A stretch of DNA of 63,961 nt, filler included, from Atractiella rhizophila (lineage: Eukaryota), in NCBI GenBank assembly GCA_021432655.1. It is 4 parts of 4 records of this genome, joined end to end, with 100 filler letters (N's around TTAATTAATTAA, not from the genome) between each part and the next. Parts side by side here need not be neighbours in the genome. Positions count along the whole stretch, not along the records: positions 29,038 to 53,429 come from MU271727.1; 3 more parts are not named here. The stretch is one strand, 5' to 3'. Within the stretch, counting starts at the first letter, position 1. The number at the start of each line of letters is the position of its first letter. The position numbers and the translations under genes are program-made. The notes below the pieces were generated by a model. It searched no databases. It was not told where the DNA came from and saw only the letters and a list, made by a program, of their open reading frames with translations. Positions 21,283-62,630 of this stretch are shown here, one piece after another.

Positions 21283-21622
21283 AGGGTCGGAGTCGGTCGG
21301 CGTTAAAACTGTCCAATGGGGGGTCAGACCTGCCCATTTAAGTCAAAATTGATTCAGACTTAGATTTTTTGGGTCCTCCAACTTCAGCAGACCTGTCGAC
21401 AAACTGGTCGCCCCAAGGGTTTTGCGCAGGCGGCCGTCGGCCGTGCGCTCAAAAGGGGTTTTGTGATCAATTTCGGGGCAAACTGGTCACCCAGGGGTTT
21501 GCGTAAGCGGTCGGAGGCTGCAAGCGAAAAATGGTTTTGCGCTTCAATTTTGAGAAAATTTGCAGCTAAAAAGCAGGTCAAAACTGGTCAACCAGTTTTA
21601 TCGCCGACCAACTCCAACCCCT
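21283..21622. mobile_element. MITE of about 340 bp with about 30-bp TIRs (Harbinger/Tourist-like)
   Basis: Left AAGGGTCGGAGTCGGTCGGCGTTAAAACTG versus reverse complement of the right end AGGGGTTGGAGTTGGTCGGCGATAAAACTG (26/30); internal AAACTGGTC three times; TTA at the right flank only. Confidence 0.7.
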
Positions 21623-24075: not shown

Positions 24076-25710
24076 TGTTGGATTTTGCAGTCTAGTTTCG
24101 TGCCACTCAGTGGCAAAGTCCTTTAGTTTTCGGGAATGTTCTACTATTTTCTAGTTGCCACTGCTGTAAGCTATATAAACACATAGAATTCCATTTCCTG
24201 GTGCTCATGCGTTTGCAAGAGCTCAGCCAAACGTAACCAAGTCGTACTTAGCTCCGCTCCTCAGCCCGTCGATTTACAACACAAACGCATCCGGTTAGAC
24301 CACCGTCACCAGTCCAGAAGAGCGGATCTGTACGACCCACGCGCCAGCCATGTCGACCCACACTGTTGGAATTCATTCACTCATCCGCGAAATTCCAAAG
24401 CTCGATGGAACGAACTATGCAGACTGGAAATTTGCTGTTACCCTCGTCCTGAAGAAATGCAATTGCTGGGATATCCTTACAAGCACGACAGATAGTGTCC
24501 AGACAAGGACTGCATCCGATGAAACGAAGAGACAGCTTGAAGACTCACTTACAATAATTGGACTCAGCCTCGATCCATCGCAGTTCATGTATGTTCGAAG
24601 CAGCACTACTGGTCCAGAAGCATGGAAAGCCCTGAAGGAGAAGTATGAGAAATCCTCAAAAGCGAACAGAATCACCTTGAAACGCGCATTTTACACGACA
24701 AAGCATGATTTCAGCGCCCCCATTGAACAATTCATCTCCCACGTCCTTGAATCAGCATCAAAAATGAAATCAATCGGCCTAACCCTGTCAGACCAAGATA
24801 TTACGGATGTCCTGACATTCAACCTTGCAGAAACATGGGGAAGCCTCGCCAGCACGCTCATGGCCACGAAAGGGGAGCAGACAATTGATGAAGTCGTTTC
24901 AGCACTCAGGGATGAAGAGAGGAGAAGAGGTGGAATACCAGGAGAGATAGAGATAGCTGCAATGGCTAGAGCAGCGCCTAAATGGGGAAGGAAGGAACAA
25001 CAGAGGGAGAATAGTCGAAGATTTGAACGATATTCAGAATCCCAGAATAACGGTACCTCACGAGCTTGTTGGATATGTGGCAATCCCACTCACATTGCTC
25101 GAGATTGCGACAGAAAAGCGAAGCCACAGGAGAGTACACACCTAGCTATCAATGAAGCCTTGATAGATGCAGCTTTTTAAAAGAAGAAAAGAAGATTGAG
25201 GGGAGTAATAGTTGAATGGTCTCAAGATCCGGTGAAATTTGGCGAATGGAGGCCGTGTATCATCTTCAGGCGTAGGAAGAAGATCTTTCATCGTTGCTGA
25301 AGCATCATGGGACAGCTATGACCTCGTATTGATGTGCCTTGAAGCTGGCAGAAGCAAGAAATCGGCGGAAGTTTTGATGAGTATTAAAGTTTGAGATCCC
25401 CTTGTTGAGAATTGAATTGACTCTTGTTTACCTTTTAATGACCTTATCGATTAACTTTACTTTCTATTGATTACCTCGTGGCACTCCACAAGCCTGGGCG
25501 GAAGTGTTGGATTTTGCAGTCTAGTTTCGTGTCACTCAGTGGCAAAGTCCTTTAGTTTTCGGGAATATTCTACTATTTTTTAGTTGCCACTGCTGTAAGC
25601 TATATAAACACATAGAATTCCATTTCCTGGTGCTCATGCGTTTGCAAGAGCTCAGCCAAACGTAACCAAGTCGTACTTAGCTCCGCTCCTCAGCCCGTCG
25701 ATTTACAACA
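24076..25710 (+). mobile_element. Non-autonomous gag-only Ty1/Copia LTR retrotransposon
   Basis: 206-bp LTRs at 24076-24281 and 25505-25710 (TGTTGG..ACAACA, 3 mismatches); 5-bp TSD ATACT on both sides; purine-rich tract GGGCGGAAG before the 3' LTR; no pol. Confidence 0.95.
24350..25180 (+). CDS. gag: Copia-type Gag (UBN2-like) with CCHC knuckle
   Basis: IPKLDGTNYADWKF, EAWKALKEKYE and CWICGNPTHIARDC; intact 276-aa ORF. Confidence 0.9.
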   Translation: MSTHTVGIHSLIREIPKLDGTNYADWKFAVTLVLKKCNCWDILTSTTDSVQTRTASDETKRQLEDSLTIIGLSLDPSQFMYVRSSTTGPEAWKALKEKYEKSSKANRITLKRAFYTTKHDFSAPIEQFISHVLESASKMKSIGLTLSDQDITDVLTFNLAETWGSLASTLMATKGEQTIDEVVSALRDEERRRGGIPGEIEIAAMARAAPKWGRKEQQRENSRRFERYSESQNNGTSRACWICGNPTHIARDCDRKAKPQESTHLAINEALIDAAF

Positions 25711-26603: not shown

Positions 26604-28755
26604 TCCTTTGCAAAAGCAAGCCGCATTGATATTAGCCCTCTTTTGTAGTTACAACACGGCCGACGGCCTTTGACAGTGAATTCGATTTTTGAATCGGCAC
26701 AGGAAGTAGTCCCTCTCGCGCGAGAGGCCGCGTCATCGCGTGAGATCAGGGAAAAGCACGCGCAGTGAGACAAACAACACTCCAGGTTTCCACACTTCTG
26801 ATTTTTGGGCGGTAGTGTTTGAACTACCACAGGAACAACCGGACCGTGATGTCTGTCTCGCGCTAGACTTCAGTAAACATGTTCCACTTTCCAGAGGAAA
26901 GCAAGTCGCTTGTCTCCACTGCGCGTGGTTTCCTGATCTGGCGCGAGAGGTTGAGTCATTGCGTGAGAGCAGGAAGTCGCACGAGAGGGAGAGTCGCGCG
27001 GGAGGGTTAGCCCGTTTGTTGCGGAAATTGTGGAGGTTAGTCATTTTTATTTATTTATTTTCATAAAACAAGTTGCTAATGGTCGCAACAGTTACCTGAA
27101 GGATGAATGCGATATTCTGCACTGGAGTGATTCTGGCAGATTTGGGTTATCACGGATGAAAAGTTGTTGATGAAGCAAGTTGCGTCGAAAATTGTTGAAA
27201 CAGAAAGACTACGCCAGCTTTGTGAATATTTTCCCAACCAGCTCGAATAAACAAAGCTGATTTGAGACAATCTCAGGTAGGTCAGCTCAACGTTAGTTGT
27301 CTTAACATTGATTTGAAATTCAACTGATCACGAATTGGATCTCCAGAAGCGCCACAATCCAATTTGTGTGTGAGACGTTTCCTGGTAATTACAAGGTATG
27401 CTTTTTTGTTTTTGTTTCGTTGAAATATGTTACTGACTACCAGTTTTTCTACCAAATACTTCAGTATTTTCTCTTCTCGTGGCTTCGAAGCAGAATGAGG
27501 TACTTCTGAGGTGTTCGATTGAATGAATTTGAAGTATTGGCAAACTGACAGTGCTCGGTAAGAGTAAAAGTTCAAGATTGACCTATTCTTGAGACGGACC
27601 TAGATGATACCAATCTCACCTAAACAACAAAAGAGGACAATCAAAATGACGATGGGGCGAATGACTTGTACAATATCATTTGGAGCGAGAGCTGCCACCT
27701 TGAACATGATGATACGTTTCAGGGGGTGACGCTTCCAATATTACTAACTACTCGCCCTAAATACTCGATGATTTGCAACAGGTGGCAAGCTTCAGCTCAT
27801 AATTAGAAGACACGAAAACGTGTTTGTCATAGCTCTCGCGCGACTCAGCCTTTCGCCCGAGAGGTTGGTTATAGGCGAGAGGAAAGTTGGAGGTGATCGA
27901 GGTTCATTGGGTCGGGCTCAAAGGCTGGAAATGAACTCACTCGCGCGAGAGCAGGTTATTGATGGCGAAAAGGAAGGGAAGGGGGAGTTTGTGCGTCGCA
28001 GCGGTTGTTCAATGATCAGTGTCGAGTGCAGTGCCTCCGCCTCCACGGTGGAAGTAAGGTTTTGAACACCTTGGATTTTGGATCTTTGGTCGTGCGGCAT
28101 TTGCGGTAATTTGCTATTCAAACTCTCAAGAAATGGGACCTTCTATCGCGCGAGAGTAGACTTCAGTCAAGTCGGTGCAATGCCTAGATCGAACGAGGCG
28201 TTTTGAACGCCAGCCACCGTTCGTCCAGGTCCATGATCAACTAGCATTATCCTCTCATTATAAGAGGACTTTTGCAGAGTTGCAGAGAGGAGAAAGGATC
28301 ATGGAGCCTCCCAAAAAACCTAAAAGAGTTTTCAGACCCAGTCAAAGGTTCCTGTTTCCCGCTAGTCTCACTCCTGTACTGAAGTTGTGGCAGGTGCATG
28401 GTGTGTGGCATTGTGTTTCAAAACATCATACCAATTATCATCTAGGAGTGCACAATAAGGAGAGTAGCCTGTGATAAAGTATTTTGTTGGTCTTAAGAAA
28501 ACTTGGATACTACTGATTTTTTGAAGGAAATGCCTCGTTGTACAGGCTGCTTGGCATGAAGGACCTTCTCAATTCTTAACAATCCTAAGCAGGAGGTCAG
28601 TCGAGGCGACAAATGTTCACGGCAATCTGTCGAAGAACAAAAGCGGCTTTTTCAGCATGCAGTATCCGGCGCTGACCCCGGCCGGTTGATGCAAGGTATG
28701 GCATGACTTGTCACGGTAAACAGGGTTACTTACATCTGACAAAGACAAACAACAA

Positions 28756-28937
28756 TTGTTGGAAGAGAATCAAAACTTGAAGGAGAAGAATCGAGAACTG
28801 GAGGAGGAGAATGCGAAATTACGAAGAAGGGTGTTGGAGCTGGAGAATGAAAAATTGAAGAAGAAGAACCGAGAGCTGGAGGGCAAGAATTTGGAGTTAG
28901 AAGGAAAGGTGTTGCAGCTGGAGGAGCGCCGACTACC
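28756..28937 (+). CDS. Coiled-coil protein fragment, cut by the assembly gap
   Basis: Repeated LE(E/N)ENxKLxxKxxE heptads running into the Ns. Confidence 0.4.
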
Positions 28938-29037
28938 NNNNNNNNNNNNNNNNNNNNNNNNNNNNNNNNNNNNNNNNNNNNTTAATTAATTAANNNNNNN
29001 NNNNNNNNNNNNNNNNNNNNNNNNNNNNNNNNNNNNN
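28938..29037. other. Artificial assembly spacer
   Basis: Exactly 100 bp: Ns flanking TTAATTAATTAA (stop codons in all six frames). Confidence 0.98.
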
Positions 29038-29038
29038 T

Positions 29039-30909
29039 GGTGTTGTATCGGGTTCGCACGCGTCGGGACCCGGTGGCATGGAATCAGGAGCAGGAAATGC
29101 GGAAAACGCGTCGGATCGAGCTTTTTTCGACTCCCTACAACGCCTGGCTAAGGAAGGACGACTTCAAGGCATCCTGAACGCGTCGGGTTGGGTGAATACT
29201 TCAGAATCGGCATCGCAGGTAGCCACCACCAAGTTCCTCGATTCTATTGGCAATCTTGTTCAAAATCTCACCAGCTCGGTTACGAAGGAGAAAGAAAAGG
29301 AGGGAGGAATGTCTGTGATAGATGGGACAGCAAGATTTTCAGGCGCGTGTCCTCCAGTGAGTGTTTCGTTTGTCGTCGGGAAAATGATGCTTGGAGTTTT
29401 GGGCGTCCGCCAGTTAGCTGGCGTTGTGCGTGCAGTACTGGTTAGCTGGGTTGCAGAAGCTGTTCTGGCAGCTTGCGTTGCGTTTTGCGTTAGAGCATTT
29501 AGCTCAGTTAAGAAGTATACAACTGTGTAGGCAGTTGTAAAGCGTCGCGTCACTGGTTAGCCAGTTCTTGCAGCGGTCTTGGCAGCTGCATTGCGTTGCA
29601 GTACTGGTCAGCCAGTTTTCTCGCGCAGTTGTGTTGACAACTGCATTCTTTGCGTTACTGGTTAGCCAGTTAGTGCAGCTGTGTTGGCAGCTGTCATGCG
29701 TTGCGTCACTGGTTAGCAGGTTAATAGAGCTGTGTGGGTACCTGCCTGCGTTGCGTTACAGGTAGCGGGATTGTTGGGAGACTGCATTATGTTCCAGTTT
29801 CTTGTCTTAATACAGTTGTGTTGTAGACTGTCATGGTGTGCTGTGTTTCACACCAAGTTTTAGGGGATTGTGATTGAGAATGGAGCTGATGAAATGTGCG
29901 GTGAGACAGTGGCTGCATGTCAAGTTGTATGAACATGCGAAGAAGAATCCGCACGCATTCCTCGAAATGGCCGCCTATTCGCCAGGATTCAACAAAACGC
30001 GTACCCCCAACATGTCAGACAAAGTCGCAATCGATCTCAACCTCGGCACCACAGTTTACGCCACCAACTCGGTGGAACATATCCTGAAGAACTTCAAAGG
30101 GAAGGACAAGCTGCTCTCCTTCGATGAATGGTACGGGGCGGCGAAGGTCCTGTTGAGAATTTTTCGAGAGGCAGAGGACAAGCACGAAGGAGCGGCGGTG
30201 TGTTGGGAAAGATACATTGATTTGGTGGAAGGTATCTACTACGGCGAGGGGAGAGGATCGGCAGAGAACTGGCCGGTCATCCGCGACGCAGATATTCGCC
30301 ACAGGAATCAACACGCAGTTTCAGGCAAGGATCTGGGGAATGGGTCGAGAGCGTGGCCCGATATCAGCAACTCGGCTGTGTTCGAGTCGCTGTATCAGTC
30401 GGTGGTACGAGAATCGCTGCATTCGATCGTCTCAAGACCAACTGCGACGCCTTTTCCCTCACCCTCAAATCGCGCGCCTTCTCAGAGAAACGGCCAGCCC
30501 TTTCGGAGCGGCTCCACGTCTCCCTACGAGAGACGTCAATCGGCGGCAGGTAGCGTCGCCTTTAGCTGTTGCATCCAGTGTGGAAAGGATAAAGCGGTCT
30601 GCGGTAGTAGGACATGTAGGTCGATTGTAGTGTGCAGCGGTTATCTGGCTGAGCTCAAGAATAGGGCAGTGGTGCAAGGAGTCAACCACAGTGGCGGGTA
30701 AGCCCATCAAGAAGCAGTCCCTCCCTCGTTCCGCCCTCCTCGACCCCCAAGGACGCGTCGCATGTTCTCAGTTCAACATCAACCATTGCAACTTCAACAC
30801 AAACTGCAAGTACAACCATTCGTGCACTATCTGTGGAGAAGCCCATTCAGCCAGACAATGCCCATCCGTCGAAACTAGACGCGGCAGCGCCACTTCCTCC
30901 TCGTCCTGA
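29039..30909 (+). CDS. ORF1 Gag-like protein, spliced (predicted introns 29357-29909 and about 30616-30664)
   Basis: Frame open from the gap; GTGAGT donor at 29357 and GCTGAT..ACAG acceptor join in frame; CIQCG and CSQFNINHC..C.Y.H.C..CG..H....C zinc fingers typical of Ngaro ORF1. Confidence 0.7.
29410..29860 (+). repeat. Tandem array (about 51-54 nt period) of twin-hairpin units
   Basis: Units start at 29437, 29552, 29603, 29657, 29708 and 29758; consensus ACTGG-TTAG-CCAGT, spacer, GCAGCTGT-GTTG-GCAGCTGC, then TGCGTTGCGT. Confidence 0.85.
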
Positions 30910-32815
30910 ACGAATTCTTCCTTCGCCGCCGCCGACACTTTCTAGCAAAGATTTCGTGCGAGCGAAGGAATTGGTGACGCCTCTTAATACGCCGGTGTGG
31001 ATCAATGGTTTAACGGTTTCAGGACTCCTGGACCAGTTCCAGGATGTGGTTTCTATTCTGGCTCACGGTTTCAAAGTGGACGGACTCAACTCCCCCCCTT
31101 CCTTCACCTTCACTCCCGACAACCACCCCTCAGCTGCGCAATACCAATCATTCTTAGATGAGTACGCAGCGGAGGAAGTGCTTTTAGAGCGGTATGCGGG
31201 TCCGTTTACAAAGGAGCAGGTTGAGGAACTGCTAGGCTCCCCTTTTCAGTCATCGCCTTTGGCAGTCGTTCCCAAGTCGGAGCCAGGAGAATTTCGTTTG
31301 ATACAAGATTTATCTTTCCCCAAGGACAGGAAAGTCCCTTGGTGGTTGTGGAAAAGGTGGAAGAAAGATAGGAGGGATTACTATGCAAGAAAGAAAATGG
31401 TGTTGAAGAGGGAAGGGAAGTTGTTCGGGAAAGTGGTAGATTGGGCGGAGCTGGTGGATAAAGAGCGGTTGGATGAGGGAGAGGAGCGAGCGATAGGGGC
31501 AGGACAAGACGGCGGGCCTCTGTCGGTGAATGCAAGGGCGGAAACGGAGAAGTACGAGTGCGGATGGGATTCATTCAAGGACATGGCGGCAGCGGTTTTG
31601 GAGGCTCCACCTGGCGCTCAGGCGGCGGTCGTGGATGTCAAGTCTGCCTTTCGCCTCATCCCCTCTCATCCATCCGTTCGATGCTGGCTCGTCGTTCAGA
31701 TCCGACCGGGACATTTCTACATCGACAAGTGCGGTTGCTTCGGTTTGGCACCAATGCCGATGATCTACGGTCGAGTAGGGGATGCGTTGGTGGCGCTCGC
31801 AGAGTTCCACGGTTACGGCCCCATCAAGAAGTGGGTGGACGACAAGGCGATTTTTCGTTTCCCGCCTTACAAATATGACCTGGCAGGCTTCTTCAGCGGC
31901 ATGGTCTCTTATGGCGTGGCGTGGAAAGAGGCAAAATGCAAGGATTTCGCGTTTCGTTGCCCGTACGTCGGGTTCGAATGGGATCTTTCGTTGAAGACGG
32001 TAGAGCTGAAGCGGGAGAAGGATGACAAAATCTTAGGAATGGTGCGAGAATGGTTGGGGGACGGGTTTGTGTGCACGGCCAAGGACGTAGAACGCATGCA
32101 CGGGCGCCTGGTTCACCTCACGTACATCATTCCTCAAGGCAAACCATACTTGGCCAGCTTGATCGCATTCCAGAAGGAATGGGGCTTCCAGCCTTCAGTA
32201 CCCCGTTCGCTCAACAACTCAGTCCGCGCGGATTTGGAAGTCTGGTTTTTCTTCCTCACTCACGCCCCCATTCGCCAGCTAATCCCTTCTGTTGCTCCGG
32301 TCGACATCTCTTGGATCGGAGACGCGTCTACATCGTTCGGGATGGCGGCTATTATTGGCGATTATGCGGCGCTTTGGGTATGGAAGGGGGGACCTGTGGA
32401 AAATACGTGGATTGGATGGGGTGAAATGCTCGCGGTGGAATTGGGGTTGAGATTACTGGATTGGATGCTGGACAAGGGCTTTCTTCGTTTAGGACCGCAC
32501 GAACGAACAATTCTCGTCAGATCAGACAATTCGGGAGTTGTAGGCGCCGTCAATCGAGGAAGGTCGCAAAACGTTCCGATCAACGAGTCGCTGAAGCGAG
32601 TGTACGAGCTGCAATTCGCCAGGGGTCTGACAGTGCACTCGCAGCATTTAGCGGGTAAGGAGAATCGCTCAGATGCTCTATCCCGAGGTTCCTTTTCGCG
32701 TTTTCGCCGCGATTTTCCTCATTGCAAGGTAGTAGAGATTATGGTCCCTCACGAAATTTCGAAATTTGTGGGTTTATGGCCAAAGCCATATGAGGCGTCA
32801 TTCGATTTCATGTAA
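30833..32815 (+). CDS. ORF2 reverse transcriptase-RNase H of the YR retrotransposon
   Basis: SSPLAVVPK, RLIQDLSFP, DVKSAFRLIP, FGL, KWVDD and YVGFEW; RNase H DASTSFG, EMLAV, RSDNSGVV and NRSDALSR; open for 660 aa. Confidence 0.95.
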   Translation: MEKPIQPDNAHPSKLDAAAPLPPRPERILPSPPPTLSSKDFVRAKELVTPLNTPVWINGLTVSGLLDQFQDVVSILAHGFKVDGLNSPPSFTFTPDNHPSAAQYQSFLDEYAAEEVLLERYAGPFTKEQVEELLGSPFQSSPLAVVPKSEPGEFRLIQDLSFPKDRKVPWWLWKRWKKDRRDYYARKKMVLKREGKLFGKVVDWAELVDKERLDEGEERAIGAGQDGGPLSVNARAETEKYECGWDSFKDMAAAVLEAPPGAQAAVVDVKSAFRLIPSHPSVRCWLVVQIRPGHFYIDKCGCFGLAPMPMIYGRVGDALVALAEFHGYGPIKKWVDDKAIFRFPPYKYDLAGFFSGMVSYGVAWKEAKCKDFAFRCPYVGFEWDLSLKTVELKREKDDKILGMVREWLGDGFVCTAKDVERMHGRLVHLTYIIPQGKPYLASLIAFQKEWGFQPSVPRSLNNSVRADLEVWFFFLTHAPIRQLIPSVAPVDISWIGDASTSFGMAAIIGDYAALWVWKGGPVENTWIGWGEMLAVELGLRLLDWMLDKGFLRLGPHERTILVRSDNSGVVGAVNRGRSQNVPINESLKRVYELQFARGLTVHSQHLAGKENRSDALSRGSFSRFRRDFPHCKVVEIMVPHEISKFVGLWPKPYEASFDFM

Positions 32816-33079
32816 CCAACAGCATGTCGTAGCAAATTAGTTTTTTCCTTTTTCAGTTTTCAGTTCATTGGTTCACTGCATGGGCACTTGGGCTTTCATC
32901 AAATTATCACCAGCAAGGCGTATTAGCAGATGTTTTTGTACTTAGTGACGACGTGCAAATATCCCAATTATCAAGGTTGTTTGACTTATATACAAACTGT
33001 CTGTTGGAGGAAGAGAGGCAAGTACATTGAAGCTTGATGGTGCGTATTGGAACGCAAGGTTACCAGAACCATCACCATC

Positions 33080-34269
33080 ATGTCTCGTTACCAGGACCTT
33101 GTACAACAGGCACAACAATCGGCTTATCGTCGACTATTGGCTTATGATCCACAGCTTTTGTTTCCAAAGGTCAAAGCGCAAGATAGAATTTACAGTGGAA
33201 ACCAGAGTAACACGTCCAAGCGGTCTACAGCCACCCTCGACTTCAAAACCTGGTTGCCCTCGCGTCTGCAGCTTCCCTGGATGAATCGACGCGTAAATCA
33301 TACGGTTCAGGATTAGCGAAGTACCTAGAATACTGCGGGAAGATGAATTTGCCTCAAAGCGAAATCTTCCCGGCCTCGAAAGGCATGATTTTAGGTTTTG
33401 GTTTATGGACGTGCTTAAAAGAAGATGGAGGAGTGGAAGGAGAAGGGCCTAAGAAGTTGGTTACGCCGCAGACAGCACAGAAGTACGTCACGGCACTTCA
33501 TTCGTGGCATACACACCATGGATTGCCATTCGCACTCTCCTCAAAGGAGGATTGGGATTATTTTCATTACCTCATGCGCGGCGCAAAGAAGTTGCGAGGA
33601 GAAGAGCTTAAGGCTCCTCGCCCTCCAGTTACGCTACACATGCTCCGCGCCTTACACACTGGGCTGGACTTTCGCAACTCATTCGACTCCTGTTGTTGGG
33701 CGGTCGCAACATCTACCTTTTTTGGTTTGATGAGATTGGGAGAAGCTACCGTGCCCAGCAAACCGGAGCATGCACGACACCCAGAGAAATACATCCCTCT
33801 TCGTAACGCGACTTGGAATTCCGACAATTCAGGCGTCGGGTTTCTGAAACTATCCCTTCCGCACGATAAGACGAAGAATCGCGTTTTGCGACCGGGAGAG
33901 AACCCAAACGTTTTTCTGCCGCGACAAGCAGACCTGAAATTGTGTCCTGTGGAAGCTTTAGCCCACCACCGATCAATTACCCCGTTGCAACCAGACAACT
34001 TTCTGTTTTCATACATTGACCGCAAGACCCTTCATATGCAACCAATGACGAGACAAGCCTTTCTGAAACGCGTCAACGAAATTTGGGAAGCCGCAGGTTT
34101 GGAACGTGATGTATCAGGACACAGTTTTCGAATTGGAGGAGCCTCCTTTTTCCTGGGACAAGGGATCTCTCCCCTCACCGTACAATGGGCAGGCAGGTGG
34201 AAATCACTGGCATTCACCTTTTATATTCGAGCTTATGAGGACATCATTCCTAAGTCGTTGGCAATTTGA
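33080..34269 (+). CDS. ORF3 tyrosine recombinase; catalytic domain intact (33343-34269), N-terminus apparently disrupted
   Basis: STRKSYGSG (N-terminal SAM-like domain), FFGLMRLGE, HDKTK, GHSFRIGGAS and GRWKS.AF..YIR; apparent frameshift near 33190 and in-frame TAA at 33208. Confidence 0.9.
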
Positions 34270-34619
34270 GTAGGTAGGATCACTTAACTCACGTCTGAGG
34301 TACCTACTGATTAGGTGTGGTAACACGCTTAGAATGTGGTTATTTATGTTCACTGATCAATGAAATGTTTTCTCCTACCGCCAGGTTGTGGGGCGTGCCG
34401 CAAGCAGCAGGCTGTCGGTTCGTCGAACCCTTAGTGGGGTGCGCCTGCTTTCCTTGCGTCCCCCTTCAGGTAGCGTAGCTTAGCGTTCGGAGCTCGTTTT
34501 TGTGCAGGTTTCGTGCTTGCTTTGCAGCGCTTAGCTTGCATTCCGCGCGCCTCTTCACGTCGTACGAGGCACGTGCTACCGACCTCCGACCGCCCGGCTC
34601 CGCTCCACCCAACTTGGCC

Positions 34620-35001
34620 GAAGAGTAATGTGCGTCTCAGGAGTCAGAGTGAGCTGAAGAACAGATTTGTTGGAGGCAACGAGCAATCCGTGCAGTTGAA
34701 AGAGCACAGATTTCGCCCACATGTGATGAGATTCATTGTCCCAGTCCCTGATATCTTCCCAATCAGCAAAACCTGCGGCGATGCCTTCACCATCAGAACC
34801 AACTTCGCGCCAAGTGTTAAGACACAGGTGAAAAAGTGTCAGAACCTGATGTGTTTGAACACAGGTCGAGAAAGGAGTAACGAGATAGAATGCCTTCCAG
34901 GCTTCGTCCCATCGTTTTAGATCAGATCCGATGGATGAAAAGGTCGTCCCTAACTGTTTGACTAACTTGCTGTGATTGTGAATGGATTCTGGGTCGGCCA
35001 T
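34620..35001 (-). pseudogene. Truncated paralog of the first exon of the 42173 gene
   Basis: SIHNH..LVK.LGTTFSSIGSDLKRWDEAWKAFYL.TPFSTC...DGEG.AAGFADWE shared with ORF 41637-42173; similarity stops near the retrotransposon. Confidence 0.85.
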
Positions 35002-35549
35002 GAAGCTTCGAGAGTATTAGGTTAGCTATTAGTGCAAGGGTTGGAGTAAAGGGGGGCTTACATATCTGCTTCCTAGATAAAGGGACAGAAACAAAGGGGA
35101 CACTTGTCTCCACAGCCTGACACGACAGTTGAAATACTTTGTCATTCCTTTGGGGACAGGAGCGCACAGGAAGAAGGGTCTTCTCATTTCAATTCGACGA
35201 CAATCGCAGCAGAATGACAGAATGTATCAAGAAATGGAACGAACGGGAAAATCTTTTGCGATAAATATTTTTGTTCTCCCTTTGTATCCTAGGCGCCCTA
35301 GCTCTATATGTGTGATTTGTAACCATCCTTTGGGAGATTGACATTCATCTGGCTCGTTTGAGTGAATAATATGCATTTAAATACATGTAAGCTGAAACGA
35401 AGAAAACACAGAAACCAGGGCATGTTGAAGTAGACTTTGCTCTCTAGTATACTGTTTATACGCACTGCAACGTTAAGAGGAGGTTCTGGATAAGAGCAGG
35501 ATCTCCTTTCATTAGCACGAGGATACTTGCTTCCAGGCCACTTCCTGGT

Positions 35550-35970
35550 CTGAGGCATGCCTCGAACGCCATCATCCCCTCAAGTTCCATCACACAACTA
35601 ATACGAGGAATGCAGGGCATGTTTCTAAATGTTCTACAATTCTTGCAAACCTTCAGGCCACTTCGACAATCTCGGCACCGACTTCTTCTCGACTCTGAAG
35701 ACTATCGTCTTAGCTGTCGACGTTTCTCATAGCCTTCAGGAGGCCGCAACAATGCGTTATGACCGACGTTCAATGCGCTTCCGACTTTGCTGCAGAGCAG
35801 AATAAGGCATTTTTACAGAATGTCTCTTTGCCAGTTGGATTCCGTGAGGTCATCTCTATCGACGTCCAGACGTCTGCGTGACCTGGCGGTTAACACAGCT
35901 GCAATCGGAGTTTAAGGGGCTGCATGATCGAAGGGATAGTCACTTTCCTTTCCTTTGAGTAGGACTAATA
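35550..35970 (+). pseudogene. Decayed paralog of the 5' exons of the 42587 patatin gene
   Basis: GCACCGACTTCTTCTC and GCTGCATGA.C.AAG.GATAGT.ACTTT..T match about 42855 and about 43140, in the same order. Confidence 0.65.
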
Positions 35971-37592
35971 GTATGTGCGTTAGTCGATAACGAAAACAAA
36001 CCGACTAGATAAAAGCCCAGAAATTGGTTCAAAGTCCAAAGCACGTGAGTAAGCGAATGAGTCTCGCATTGATCACCGAACGCCCCGACCTGGCACAGCG
36101 TGAAGGGGGGTCAAATCAGGAACACGACCCTAACCCAGCGTTGAATGGAAGGTGAACAAAAGCACCTCTGCTCTCACACCTTCCGACTCCCTTTGCCTTC
36201 GTGTCCTTTTCTTCGCCCAACGCTCCCTCCGCTGCAGAGTTCAAACTGTCGAGGAGGTGGCTCATCTTGCTTACCACCTCGTTTGGGGTCTTTCCAAAGC
36301 TCACAAACTCTCGTGAGGGTTCAGAGTGTTGGAAAAGACAAAACGCGTTCAAATTTCATCTATACCTCGACCACACCTTCGAACGTGTCTCTGATAAATG
36401 TTACGAGCGTGATCGAGGGCTGCAAGGTGCGAGACAAAGTAAAGCAGAAAGCTTGTGTTAACATTGAGTCTATATGAAGGTAGAGAAATACATTACCTGC
36501 AAGGTGCGAGACAAAGTAAAGCAGAAAGCTTGTGGTCTCGCACTTGCAGGAGATCTTGTTTTATAGCAGAGAAGATGAATAATAAGGAAAGAGACTAAGG
36601 AAAACCAACAGCGCGCCAGCGTGCGAAAGGAGGGTGCGTAAATGGTACCGTGGCCCCATCAGTCTCTCTATCAGGTCGGTCCCAGAACTGAATCAGCGTG
36701 CTTGGAACAACCTTATGAGGAAACTTAGACGTCTCTTCCTCAAACCTGGTGAGGAAGCCGGTAAGAAAAGGTTGACAACTCTTTGTATCGACTGTTGAAC
36801 GTGCTGGATGGAACACTTCTTTCTGCCTTTCTTTCAAAGTTTGATGTCACTATGTGGTGAGAATCACCATGTCATTAGCAATCTGGGTATGAGAACCCGA
36901 GGTGAATTTGACAATGCTACGGCCATGACACCGACCGCGTTCCTACCACGCTTTGTCCAATCAATTTAGGGGCCGAAACGGGCAAAGAAAGAGAGAAGAT
37001 ATCACGCCCACTTCTCAGCGCCCTCTCATTCTCAAGCCATAACTACCGAAGAGTCTCCCGAAGGCTCCAAAAGGGCTATGGCCGGCGAACTGCATTGAAG
37101 CGCCACTTCCACCACTCCCCGAAGTGCCTGTGAGGGAGGGTGTGCCTTGAGGTTACGCGTTCATGGGAATAATTACTGAACGTTGATATTTTGAGTTGGA
37201 GCGGAATCACTCCCTTCCGAGGGACGTTGGTTCCCGCGTCCCGTCTTCGCGCCATTTCGTCGCCTTTCCTTGTGTTCACGACCTATCTGGTTGCAGTGAT
37301 TACATTCAGCCCACACGAATGTGACGAGATACGTCTGGAATGCTTGATCAGCCGTCGTGAGGGGTTATCGATGGTCCTCATCCGCGGTTGCCTTTCTCGG
37401 TACACACCGTGCTCTCCGAAAGATTCACTGGGAGCAAGTGAGTTCTGCCGCATTCCTTCAGGCACTTACCAACCAGCAGAGCATCGTCCGTGCTCTCCGC
37501 TTTGCTTCCAGGTATAAAATGAGGTACGAAGATCCGTTCCTAACTCAGAAGCCAATCAAATCAAAATAACACAAGAGAAATCCTCATCTACC

Positions 37593-40309: not shown

Positions 40310-42173
40310 GTGAGAACAGGTAATTGTTCATCTTCATCAGCAGTTCCATTACATCAGGCACCATATTCTCCAAAATCTCCAACAATATCACCAGCGCCGC
40401 ACCCTTTGAATCTCAGGTCGCGTTCGGCTCCAATTGACGTGTACAGTTGGATTGTATTCGCCTCTGAGGAAGTCTGCATCCTTCTCGAAGTTTTCTCGAA
40501 AAGCGACAAGATCTCCAACCTGGATCCTGAGTGCTTCGGCATTCTCCTGAAAGACAACTCGAATGTGAGAAGATCCAGCATCACCATTCTCAGCACTTTG
40601 TACCATCTCCTGCAGAGTCTGGTTGATATGCATCATAACGGCGCTAGTTAGCGACCACAATCGATCTCGGCTTTGACGGAGATCCCTCTTCCACCTCGTC
40701 ATCCTGTCCTTCGCTAATTCGTCCTGTGGAAGAGTAGTTGTTCCGAATGATAAGGGCAAGACGCGATCGGTGAAATAAACGGAATAAGCCGTAGGTTGAA
40801 GAGACCCTGCTGAAGATCAATTCCAATCCCTTCATGGGAAGGCATACATACAAAACTGATACCATTGCAATCTGAGCCAAGTTAGGATTCCAAGCAATCC
40901 ACCAGCGCTGCTTTCGGCGCGCTCCAACTGGCAAGTAATTGAATGCGACAGAAGCTCGCTCGCTGGTTCGAGAAAGACGAAAAAGGAGCTCAGCATGATG
41001 GAAGTTCGGGAAAAGGAATGGTGAAGCTTGGAAACTGAGTCTTTGGCCTTCTCATCATTTAGATTCTTTCCCAACAGGAGCTTTTCGAAGACAATGAGGA
41101 AGTCATTCACGAAACATTCGTAGTCGTGGATCATCAAAAGCAAAATAAATCGCAAGTCTTCTTGGACCAGCCGGACTTCTGCAGGCGGAACAAACCAGCG
41201 AGCTTCGACTGCAGCGTTGGCCCATTTTAAAGAGAGAACGAGATATTCAAGCTCCCGGTTGCAGAGAATGCCGATGCTCGAGAGGGTCATGGCATAAAGA
41301 TCGCTATCCGAGGGTAGCGGTCGCGGGGCTACAGGTGGATGTGGGGTCTGGTGTAGATTATTGGAAGACGCTGGGGGGTGCTGTCGAAACTTTGGTGAAA
41401 GCTGAAGGAAATCGACGGAAAGTTTCAAAGCGCGACCATGCAAAAAGTGATCTGGGACAACGTCCCCGTACACATTGCTGCAATCTAGCCATGCCGACGT
41501 TGAGACAAGGATCAAAGATCGTTGAAGGTGCAATCTCCCAGCTCGGAGACCTTGAAGGTAGGCTTCGACTTCCTTCCAGAAGCCAAGGAGACCTTTTGAG
41601 CAAGATTTGATGACCAGGAACTGTTGATGAAGATTATCACTCAAATAGTCTATTTCGAGCGTCAGACGAGAGAGAGCAAAAATGTTGATGCTGACCAAAG
41701 TCCCGCCTTTTGTACAACTGTGCTGGTCGACGCCAAAACCAAAGATATGATGCAGCATTCACAAAACGAAGGTGGTCATGACAATTACGGAGTAGCTCAG
41801 TCTGCAAACTGGACATCCTTGTCGCCAAGTGCAATTGAGACTCTGCGGCAACAAGCAATTGCTGCAGTTGGAAGAGAACAGACTGTGCCCAAATATGATG
41901 AGATTCGGTGTCCCAATCGCTGTTACCTTCCCAATCAGCGAAGCCTGCTGCAAGACCTTCGCCATCGGAACGTAAGCTACGCCAAGTCTGGAGACAAATG
42001 TCAAAAAGAGTGAGAATTTGATGTGCTTGAATGCATGTTGAGAAAGGGGTGAGCAGATAAAATGCCTTCCAGGCTTCGTCCCATCGTTTTAGATCTGATC
42101 CGATGGATGAAAAAGTCGTCCCTAACAGTTTGACTAACTGGGCGTGATTGTGAATAGATTGGAGGTCCGTCAT
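40310..42173 (-). CDS. Large hypothetical helical protein, multi-exon, directly upstream of patatin A
   Basis: ORFs 41637-42173, 40832-41758 and 40388-40759 join in frame through short GT-AG introns (for example 41650-41695, GTCAGC..CTGAC..TAG); paralog at 34620-35001. Confidence 0.7.
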
Positions 42174-53429: not shown

Positions 53430-53529
53430 NNNNNNNNNNNNNNNNNNNNNNNNNNNNNNNNNNNNNNNNNNNNTTAATTAATTAANNNNNNNNNNNNNNN
53501 NNNNNNNNNNNNNNNNNNNNNNNNNNNNN
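53430..53529. other. Artificial assembly spacer
   Basis: 100-bp N/TTAATTAATTAA linker. Confidence 0.98.
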
Positions 53530-62530: not shown

Positions 62531-62630
62531 NNNNNNNNNNNNNNNNNNNNNNNNNNNNNNNNNNNNNNNNNNNNTTAATTAATTAANNNNNNNNNNNNNN
62601 NNNNNNNNNNNNNNNNNNNNNNNNNNNNNN
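62531..62630. other. Artificial assembly spacer
   Basis: 100-bp N/TTAATTAATTAA linker. Confidence 0.98.

Follow-up and report, generated by a model that had tools for sequence, protein, structure and literature searches.

The retroviral packaging signal Psi is located downstream of the major splice donor, as in the case of the paired stem-loops of the murine leukaemia virus Psi. The Rev-response element (RRE) of HIV, along with other retroviral and retrotransposon export elements, serves intron-containing RNA. Tandem repeats are also found in the non-coding regions of retrotransposons, including the untranslated-region repeats of plant long terminal repeat elements and the 5′ monomers of mouse L1. 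To our knowledge, it is not known how retrotransposons that use a tyrosine recombinase choose the RNA from which they are copied. In the case of DIRS-1, not even the reverse-transcription primer is said to have been identified (PMC7192593). The locus described here belongs to such an element and lies in a stretch of 63,961 nucleotides from Atractiella rhizophila (assembly GCA_021432655.1), referred to below as the window. The gene order of the element fits that of a Ngaro-like tyrosine-recombinase retrotransposon, and most of the first intron of its open reading frame 1 (ORF1) is taken up by an array of twin hairpins. The array is a fast-evolving minisatellite with a unit of ~51 nt, in which a pair of short inverted repeats is accompanied by a linker that is conserved and rich in TGCGTT. 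Its anatomy is solid, while selection and function are unproven, with part of the apparent covariation being explicable by mutation.

The array is a degenerate tandem repeat of 8–9 units of 50–60 nt, as parsed by eye, and is degenerate at both ends (Table 1). Its core was called by Tandem Repeats Finder (TRF) with 72% matches, 10% indels and a score of 184, and offsets of 105 and 156 nt between units were returned by a repeat search and self-BLAST. Read by eye, a unit consists of hairpin 1, a spacer of 3–8 nt, hairpin 2 and a linker of the CAT/TGCGTTGCGT type. Hairpin 1 is ACTGG-TTAG-CCAGT; it is exact at 29552 and 29657, has one mismatch at 29603 and two to three at 29708 and 29437. In U0 the arms of this hairpin carry CA/TG in place of the TG/CA of the other units, and the GAGC/GCTC stem that stands for hairpin 1 in U2 is weaker in a variant copy. 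With up to three mismatches allowed, the hairpin-1 motif has 13 matches in the window against 3.76 expected, a number that was reached by none of 100 shuffles, and nine of the 13 are inside the array. The consensus of hairpin 2 is GCAGCTGT-GTTG-GCAGCTGC. The linker GCGTTGCG is exact at 29475, 29698 and 29748, and across the window this 8-mer is not enriched (39 matches vs 37 expected). The clean twin-hairpin units in this copy are U3–U5 only.

When six whole units were given to RNAalifold, both hairpins came out unprompted as the consensus structure. Together with the TRF call and the motif enrichment, this bears out the first-pass annotation of the locus, which had placed a hairpin array here, and all five of the hairpin-2 arm pairs that it quoted are present. 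A search of Rfam, which it had proposed, gave no match at E ≤ 1 over 27000–36000 on either strand. ACTGG-like matches at 21482–21596 were considered as relatives of the array and rejected. They belong to an unrelated local repeat at 21380–21600, composed of AAACTGG(T)C...GGGTTTTGCG-like segments, whose likeness to hairpin 1 is due to chance.

The position of the array relative to the splice sites was obtained from contigs of four public runs, aligned to 29040–30700. In run X3, which is RNA-like in its behaviour, a contig joins 29356 to 29910 across a GT..AG intron, in frame, at a depth of 144 and with 78 letters on the shorter side. The summed X3 depth is 283 over exon 1, 0–2.6 over intron 1 and 67–250 over exon 2, with the spliced form at ~100 times the depth of the array-bearing contig. 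P0006, the NCBI gene model of a paralog that is 91–92% identical, aligns to 29042–29353 and then to 29907–30056, skipping the array. Both the joint and the skip agree with the earlier placement of the array wholly within the ORF1 intron, and hence in unspliced RNA only. The array makes up ~80% of intron 1. A CTGAT branch-like motif is located at 29885–29889, 20 nt before the acceptor, and G+T in this intron is 64.7% vs ~50% in the exons. The ttttAG at 29862–63 was rejected as the acceptor in favour of 29908–09 on the contig evidence. A coding role for the array was also rejected, based on indels of 1 and 2 nt between array copies and on the unspliced read-through of exon 1, which stops at 29530 after a Val/Gly/Ala/Cys-rich tail.

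With both introns removed, ORF1 is open to 30909; without the splicing of intron 2, it meets a stop at 30701. Exon 3 encodes a C-x7-C-x5-C-x3-H finger followed by a C-x2-C-x4-H-x4-C knuckle. The Pfam family zf-CCCH matches ORF1 with an E-value of 6.7e-4 and 19.9 bits, slightly below the cut-off of 20.5. Judging by their sequence, these zinc-finger modules could bind RNA. Runs X1 and X2, which are tentatively listed as DNA, cover the whole of this region with many variant contigs, and some of these (records 1 and 7, depth 547–792) extend from exon 1 through the array and reach exon 2. The 29356->29910 joint was seen in none of the 51 X1 and 19 X2 contigs, though contigs cannot prove that copies lacking the intron are absent. 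The 51 X1 contigs comprise 14 at ≥99% identity, 20 at 95–99%, 11 at 90–95% and six at <90%. The element belongs to a family of many copies, with intron 1 retained in those observed in X1 and X2. Because the intron is kept in these contigs, the copies seen appear to have been made from unspliced RNA.

Table 1. Features of the hairpin array, of its host element and of the joins between contigs, with positions counted along the window.
Feature	Position	Strand	Remarks
Artificial joins	28938-29037, 53430-53529, 62531-62630	.	44 N + TTAATTAATTAA + 44 N, 100 nt each; identical
ORF1 exon 1	29039-29356	+	5′ end cut by contig start
ORF1 intron 1	29357-29909	+	553 nt, GTGAGT...ACAG, phase 0
Whole array	29404-29860	+	8–9 units
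U0	29404-29436	+	hairpin 1 and linker only
U0 hairpin 1 variant, GCCAG-TTAG-CTGGC	29409-29422	+	6 bp with C29408/G29423
U1	29437-29491	+	hairpin 1 CTGG/CTGG, G-U only; hairpin 2 AAGCTG/CAGCTT; long linker
U2	29492-29551	+	GAGC/GCTC stem, shifted register; hairpin 2 TACAACTG/CAGTTGTA
TRF core	29523-29756	+	period 51, 4.6 copies
U3	29552-29602	+	canonical hairpin 1; hairpin 2 with one internal G-A mismatch
U4	29603-29656	+	hairpin 1 with TCAG loop; hairpin 2 GCAGTTGT-GTTG-ACAACTGC, 8 Watson-Crick pairs
U5	29657-29707	+	canonical hairpin 1; hairpin 2 GCAGCTG/CAGCTGT
U6	29708-29757	+	both hairpins damaged in this copy
U7	starts 29758	+	truncated, left arm of hairpin 2 lost, degenerate
U8	starts 29796	+	hairpin 2 at 29812-29831, 6/8 pairs
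Terminal hairpin GGTGTG/CACACC	29835-29854	+	separate from the units
ORF1 exon 2	29910-30615	+	gag-like body; no Pfam family
ORF1 intron 2	30616-30664	+	49 nt, GTAGGT...ATAG; joined in run X3 contig 30615->30665
ORF1 exon 3	30665-30909	+	read only once intron 2 is removed
RT/RNase H-like ORF (P0003)	30665-32815	+	overlaps exon 3 in another frame
Tyrosine recombinase ORF (P0004)	33211-34269	+	Phage_integrase E 4.4e-6, 27.0 bits

The reading preferred here, held with a probability of roughly 0.4, is that of a structured element that acts in cis and is confined to the template RNA in which the intron is retained. The full ORF1 protein, with the CCCH finger and the CCHC knuckle at its end, would be translated from the doubly spliced RNA, and the unspliced RNA alone would carry the array. 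The array would then mark the unspliced RNA as the template for reverse transcription, either by offering many binding sites to the ORF1 protein, by holding back splicing, or by both. We infer for this selection on the pairing, RNA as the relevant molecule and a binding partner.

The argument for such a signal is drawn from the retention of the intron. The reverse transcriptase (RT) of DIRS-1 is reported to act in trans, with a spliced marker being readily reverse-transcribed into new insertions (PMC7192593). As that enzyme copies a spliced marker in trans, the keeping of an intron needs a reason. Here the intron is kept though spliced RNA appears to be abundant, from which it would follow that the family must select unspliced RNA and that a cis signal is to be expected in an intron. 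The short length of intron 2 (49 nt), the share of intron 1 that is given over to the array and the G+T content of intron 1 (64.7%) favour a cis role on intron-retaining RNA. The full gag-like protein needs two introns out and the genomic copies seen keep the first, so something must tell unspliced from spliced RNA. The array, which fills most of intron 1, is the obvious candidate, and the question of template choice thereby becomes testable.

As the main alternative, it is also quite possible that the array is a neutral minisatellite, a short palindrome-bearing segment of ORF1 amplified by slippage or template jumping that was promoted by hairpin stalling, and tolerated since the flanking splice sites remove it from the messenger. 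The pairing would in this case be kept by mutation, through symmetric CpG decay, quasi-palindrome correction and the duplication of already paired units. Neutrality leaves unexplained the retention of a 553-nt intron in the DNA contigs while spliced RNA seems to be predominant.

The pairing of hairpin 2 speaks for selection or for a mutational process that acts on both arms at once. Across the seven aligned units, 87.5% of the 56 cells are paired, and four of the eight pairs have changed on both sides, in six cells. Neither the count of double-change cells nor the covariation score was reached in any of 500 shuffles, with the caveat that related rows may exceed shuffles without any structure. 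Neutral decay from the consensus, simulated with the observed numbers of substitutions, produced a mean of 0.98 compensated cells vs the six observed (P = 7e-5 for at least six), with P = 0.008 for at least 49 of the 56 cells being paired. When the states of U4/U8 and of U2/U8 were each counted once, the probability of at least four compensated cells was 0.0098. With complementarity ignored and 23 hits on 112 stem sites, at least six double-hit cells are expected with P = 0.006. At pairs 4-17 and 5-16, every change is a complete double, three in all, and none affects one side only (P = 0.00097; with U4 and U8 taken as one event, there are two events and P = 0.0044).

In hairpin 2, the compensation at pairs 4-17, 5-16 and 2-19 occurs outside CpG context and exceeds the independent-hit expectation, which tells against the neutral minisatellite. 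The covariation at these non-CpG pairs is a real correlated change, the cause of which could be selection for pairing or template switching from arm to arm. Template switching has been reported to create and maintain hairpins (PMC8794818), a point in favour of neutrality, and at this array it is a candidate mechanism only. U4 has U-A at both of the consensus U-G pairs (5-16 and 8-13), as one arm-copying event would give, which also fits a neutral origin.

The joint change of the arms bears on a further explanation, in which the array acts as double-stranded DNA and its palindromes (CANNTG, CTGG-N4-CCAG) are protein-binding sites of an internal enhancer or promoter, or sites for the recombinase. 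CAGCTG, CAGTTG and CAACTG all match CANNTG, and tandem promoter monomers are known in other retroelements. Such sites are nonetheless highly improbable here, because a sequence-specific site leaves unexplained why, at pairs 4-17 and 5-16, a change in one arm of a unit is matched in the other so that the two remain reverse complements. In addition, the AAGCTG/CAGCTT of U1 loses the CANNTG box and keeps its pairing.

A number of findings, set out in this paragraph and in those on the other copies and on the strand, weigh against the array as a selected signal on template RNA. The kind of run X3 is unrecorded, and contigs such as those of X1 and X2 cannot show absence. U6–U8 are decayed in this copy, and the decay of U6 and of the edge units is as expected of a neutral repeat. 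The hairpin-2 alignment leaves out U7, of which the left arm is missing and the register ambiguous. In the same shuffles, the number of pairs changed on both sides was reached in nine of 500 and the number of further pair types in 218 of 500. With complementarity ignored, at least four double-hit cells have P = 0.155, and the covariation term of RNAalifold is +0.31, which amounts to no bonus.

Hairpin 1 was aligned over six units, with U2 and U7 left out for their ambiguous register, and 92% of its cells are paired. All three of its double changes are in U0, a result that 24 of 500 shuffles reached. The paired dinucleotides are CA/TG in U0, TG/TG in U1 and TG/CA in U3–U5. These are three of the four products of a CG/CG palindrome that decays by C>T on either strand, and two of the four are perfectly compensated without any selection. 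Since its states match the products of symmetric CpG decay, the covariation of hairpin 1 needs no selection and fits an explanation by mutation alone. The paralog contigs keep C at 29447 and 29692 (CCGG and CCG), a contig of run X5 has ACGG in an arm of hairpin 2, and the observed/expected ratio of CpG is 0.74–0.78 in the array and intron vs 1.05–1.12 in the exons. All of this counts for the neutral minisatellite. The covariation that had been annotated for both hairpins is therefore supported for hairpin 2, where six compensated cells face an expectation of 0.98, and weakened for hairpin 1, where CpG decay gives the same states.

The comparison with other copies points in a similar direction. 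The figures are from among the substitutions listed against the paralog contigs, beside which 205 further rows exist. Among those listed, 10 of the 20 array substitutions are in stems, where 39% would be expected by length. There is no sign of purifying selection on the stems between copies, and this lack of depletion agrees with neutrality; in copies that are old and dead, no such sign is to be expected. Five of the 10 listed stem substitutions are G-U/G-C or U-G/U-A exchanges, and three make or break a pair. T29473C and T29692C would result in A-C mismatches in the main paralog unless there are unlisted changes in their partners. Hairpin 2 of U6 is intact in the paralog contigs, with the restoring letters at 29736, 29738, 29739 and 29741. 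In one variant contig, 109 nt are replaced by 57, a net loss of 52 nt that leaves one unit fewer, and such variation by whole units is again what a neutral minisatellite would give. At 11 of the listed array sites, approximately five of them in CpG context, a T in this copy faces a C in the main paralog, and an A faces a G at one. This strand bias points to decay by C>T of the plus (non-template) strand of intron 1.

Some observations on copies and relatives are recorded here in their own right. Run X5 covers 29452–29763 only, at a depth of 2.5–5.5, and its contig continues into a further array-like unit, with the exons uncovered. An array apart from ORF1 is a possible reading of this coverage; it was not used, as the uncovered part proves nothing. 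The excess depth of X1 over U3–U4 was likewise not used as a copy number. A metagenome scan with P0006 gave 597 pattern stretches, of which tblastn confirmed none. Three metagenome loci with a pattern of the 19-nt linker and hairpin 1 (L001–L003) were rejected as chance, as each had a single match in ordinary-looking coding DNA and no array. A protein search with P0007, an 83-amino acid minus-strand ORF from the array, found no candidate and no gene-called look-alike in that length range.

As to the strand, it had been proposed that the U-G pairs favour the plus-strand RNA. The count itself stands, with 11 G-U cells vs one A-C cell on the plus strand, but it is weak evidence for the conclusion drawn from it. 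A single inherited closing pair accounts for five of the 11, and a further four (29447, 29694, 29710 and 29739) are G-C in the main paralog contig, which makes them C>T changes that occurred in this copy alone.

Folding of the intron does not uphold plus-strand RNA as the folding molecule, as local hairpins are predicted for the minus strand or for single-stranded DNA instead. In the plus-strand RNA ensemble, hairpin 1 has a probability of ≤0.01 in five of the six units, U0 alone reaching ~0.99. Hairpin 2 is at ~0 in four of the seven units and at 0.36 in U1, with only those of U2 and U4 being firm (~0.99). Inter-unit helices beat the local hairpins on this strand. On the minus strand, hairpin 1 reaches 0.97–1.0 in four of six units with a span limit of 60 nt, and hairpin 2 reaches 0.64–0.98 in five of seven; hairpin 1 of U0 has a base-pair probability of 0.99 on both strands. 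Under DNA parameters, the predicted structure of either strand is a row of local hairpins, at z-scores of −3.84 and −4.05. Unit by unit, the minus strand scores at least as well as the plus strand, the z-scores of the good units being −2 to −4.3 and −2 to −3, respectively. For the whole region as RNA, they are −4.78 (plus) and −2.89 (minus). Folding energy is thus inconclusive as to the strand. It should be noted that co-transcriptional folding would favour local hairpins. Hairpin 1 of U0 and hairpin 2 of U2 and U4, which are the firm ones on the plus strand, are precisely the hairpins whose stems are specific to their unit. On these models, the survival of such stems would be the outcome expected from selection against inter-unit pairing.

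Two further explanations are built on these folds. In one of them, the hairpins form on the minus-strand complementary DNA (cDNA) made from unspliced RNA, where they would prime or organise second-strand synthesis or stabilise a single-stranded intermediate before recombination. We know of no role for internal hairpins in elements of this kind. The minus-strand ensemble is dominated by local twin hairpins and the DNA-parameter folds are hairpin strings on both strands, and DIRS-1 is reported to amplify via a linear single-stranded cDNA (PMC7192593). A DNA role is still very unlikely, given that the minus strand has mismatches in place of the closing U-G pair of the consensus and of the intermediates, and that energy models cannot separate function from a mere palindrome.

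The other explanation has the plus-strand units pair with one another into one long imperfect hairpin, which would act as a trigger or decoy for small RNAs or would compact the intron for splicing. Both the minimum free energy structure and the centroid nest inter-unit helices around hairpin 2 of U4, over ~29552–29720, in keeping with the plus-strand z-score of −4.78, and 553 nt is a considerable length for a basidiomycete intron. Against this, the helices are short and broken by interruptions, and local hairpins should be favoured by co-transcriptional folding. A long hairpin is for these reasons considered quite unlikely.

Within the preferred reading of the array as a signal on the template RNA, a more specific switch can be drawn, although it is doubtful in its entirety. 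The ORF1 protein, for which doubly spliced RNA is the only source, would bind the array with its diversified stems, block the removal of intron 1 and channel the unspliced RNA to reverse transcription, thus combining Rev/RRE-like and Psi-like behaviour. If true, no signal for template selection would have been defined before this switch in any DIRS/Ngaro element, and the array would be nature's equivalent of the sets of non-identical stem-loops that are engineered for RNA tagging. If the array is neutral, it illustrates clearly that in palindromes CpG decay and copying from arm to arm can mimic RNA covariation, which matters to anyone screening genomes for structured RNAs.

The contig of the host element begins at 29038, inside ORF1. 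As the window is a chain of separate contigs, features read across the 100-nt joins are artefacts. For this reason, a coiled-coil ORF at 28720–28937 was rejected as part of ORF1, since it belongs to another contig behind the artificial linker. The N-terminus is unlike that ORF in P0006 and in a loose X2 end at 29048. The coiled-coil-type ORF contains a 78-nt tandem duplication (28765–28923, two copies, 80% matches), and a copia-type gag ORF at 24299–25177 is also on the contig before that of the element. The exon-2 protein was modelled by AlphaFold2 without an alignment, with a mean predicted local distance difference test score (pLDDT) of 37.9, too poor for a fold search. Among 5.8 billion clusters, ORF1 has a single relative, an NCBI protein labelled Atractiella rhizophila.

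The RT/RNase H-like ORF has its first ATG only after 244 codons and is probably expressed, on the basis of its sequence, by frameshifting or as a fusion. P0003 matched no Pfam family even at an E-value of 10 and no sequence in the PDB. It has five relatives in a large protein collection, two of which carry PF00078 (E 6.3e-18 and 6.2e-8), and in the Atlas it adjoins Basidiomycota clusters and then RVT_1 (nearest named clusters, score 0.95). VDD and DAS-type motifs are visible by eye. At the junction of ORF1 with this ORF (30680–30700), the X1, X2 and X3 contigs diverge from the window after 30680, 30692 and 30698, and other copies are strongly diverged from this one there. The tyrosine recombinase ORF is 3′ of the RT/RNase H-like ORF across a gap of ~400 nt (32815 to 33211), and its Phage_integrase match is marginally below the cut-off of 27.1 bits. 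A methyltransferase-like domain between the RT/RNase H and the tyrosine recombinase is a feature of DIRS-like elements. No methyltransferase-like Pfam match was found in P0003 or P0004, a weak blank given that Pfam also missed the RT.

For split direct repeats of the form A1-[ORFs]-B1A2B2, A1 would be beyond the contig start, and on the 3′ side only a 38-nt repeat was found. This is a perfect direct repeat at 36420–36457 and 36497–36534, with a spacing of 77 nt, downstream of the element; a short inverted match to its start follows at 36535–36549. A 327-nt direct repeat of 80% identity is also present at 34675–35001 and 41847–42173, 7.2 kb apart, with one copy just 3′ of the recombinase ORF and the other among patatin-like genes. 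It may, from its sequence and place, be a fragment of another copy of the element or of a terminal repeat. Host-type genes follow downstream, two patatin-like and one F-box.

Compared with described elements, the host element resembles the Ngaro elements of PMC3783388, PMC8547959 and PMC13465315 in its order of a gag-like ORF1, an RT/RNase H-like ORF and a tyrosine recombinase ORF. It also shares with them a basidiomycete host, and differs in that its RT ORF matches no Pfam model. No extra domain was detected between the RT/RNase H and the tyrosine recombinase, a blank subject to the weakness of Pfam noted above. The excerpted texts of the three sources make no mention of ORF1 introns or a hairpin array, and the fungal survey PMC3783388 has no occurrence of intron, tandem repeat or hairpin. 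In the literature searched on DIRS/Ngaro elements, which does not extend to the original Ngaro descriptions, no introns with hairpin arrays were found, in line with the first-pass annotation, which knew of no description of such an array. The original descriptions, by Goodwin and Poulter in 2004, Poulter and Goodwin in 2005, and Poulter and Butler in 2015, may mention ORF1 introns.

The hairpins created by template switching are similar in that they are short-loop inverted repeats with arms that change together, but they represent (PMC8794818) a mutational mechanism as opposed to a functional class. The minisatellites of other retroelements share the head-to-tail, non-coding units that vary in number between copies. 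In contrast to these, the units of the present array carry two inverted repeats with compensated changes and are located in the intron of a gag-like gene of a tyrosine-recombinase element. With Psi, the array has in common the short stem-loops that are confined to unspliced RNA by their intronic position, an element that encodes a Gag-like protein with a CCHC knuckle and, by analogy, the choice of unspliced RNA as the genome. It differs from Psi in that Gag requires the removal of the intron here, so that messenger and template would be separate molecules, and in being a tandem repeat of variable copy number, whereas Psi is a unique folded domain. The RRE offers the parallel of an intronic, multivalent structured RNA, to which a protein from the fully spliced messenger could bind and so provide feedback from spliced to unspliced RNA, although there is no sequence or Rfam similarity between the two (no match at E ≤ 1 over 27000–36000). 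By these analogies, the nearest known counterparts of the array would be, in function, the intronic signals of the Psi and RRE type and, in structure, the internal tandem repeats that are common in retroelements.

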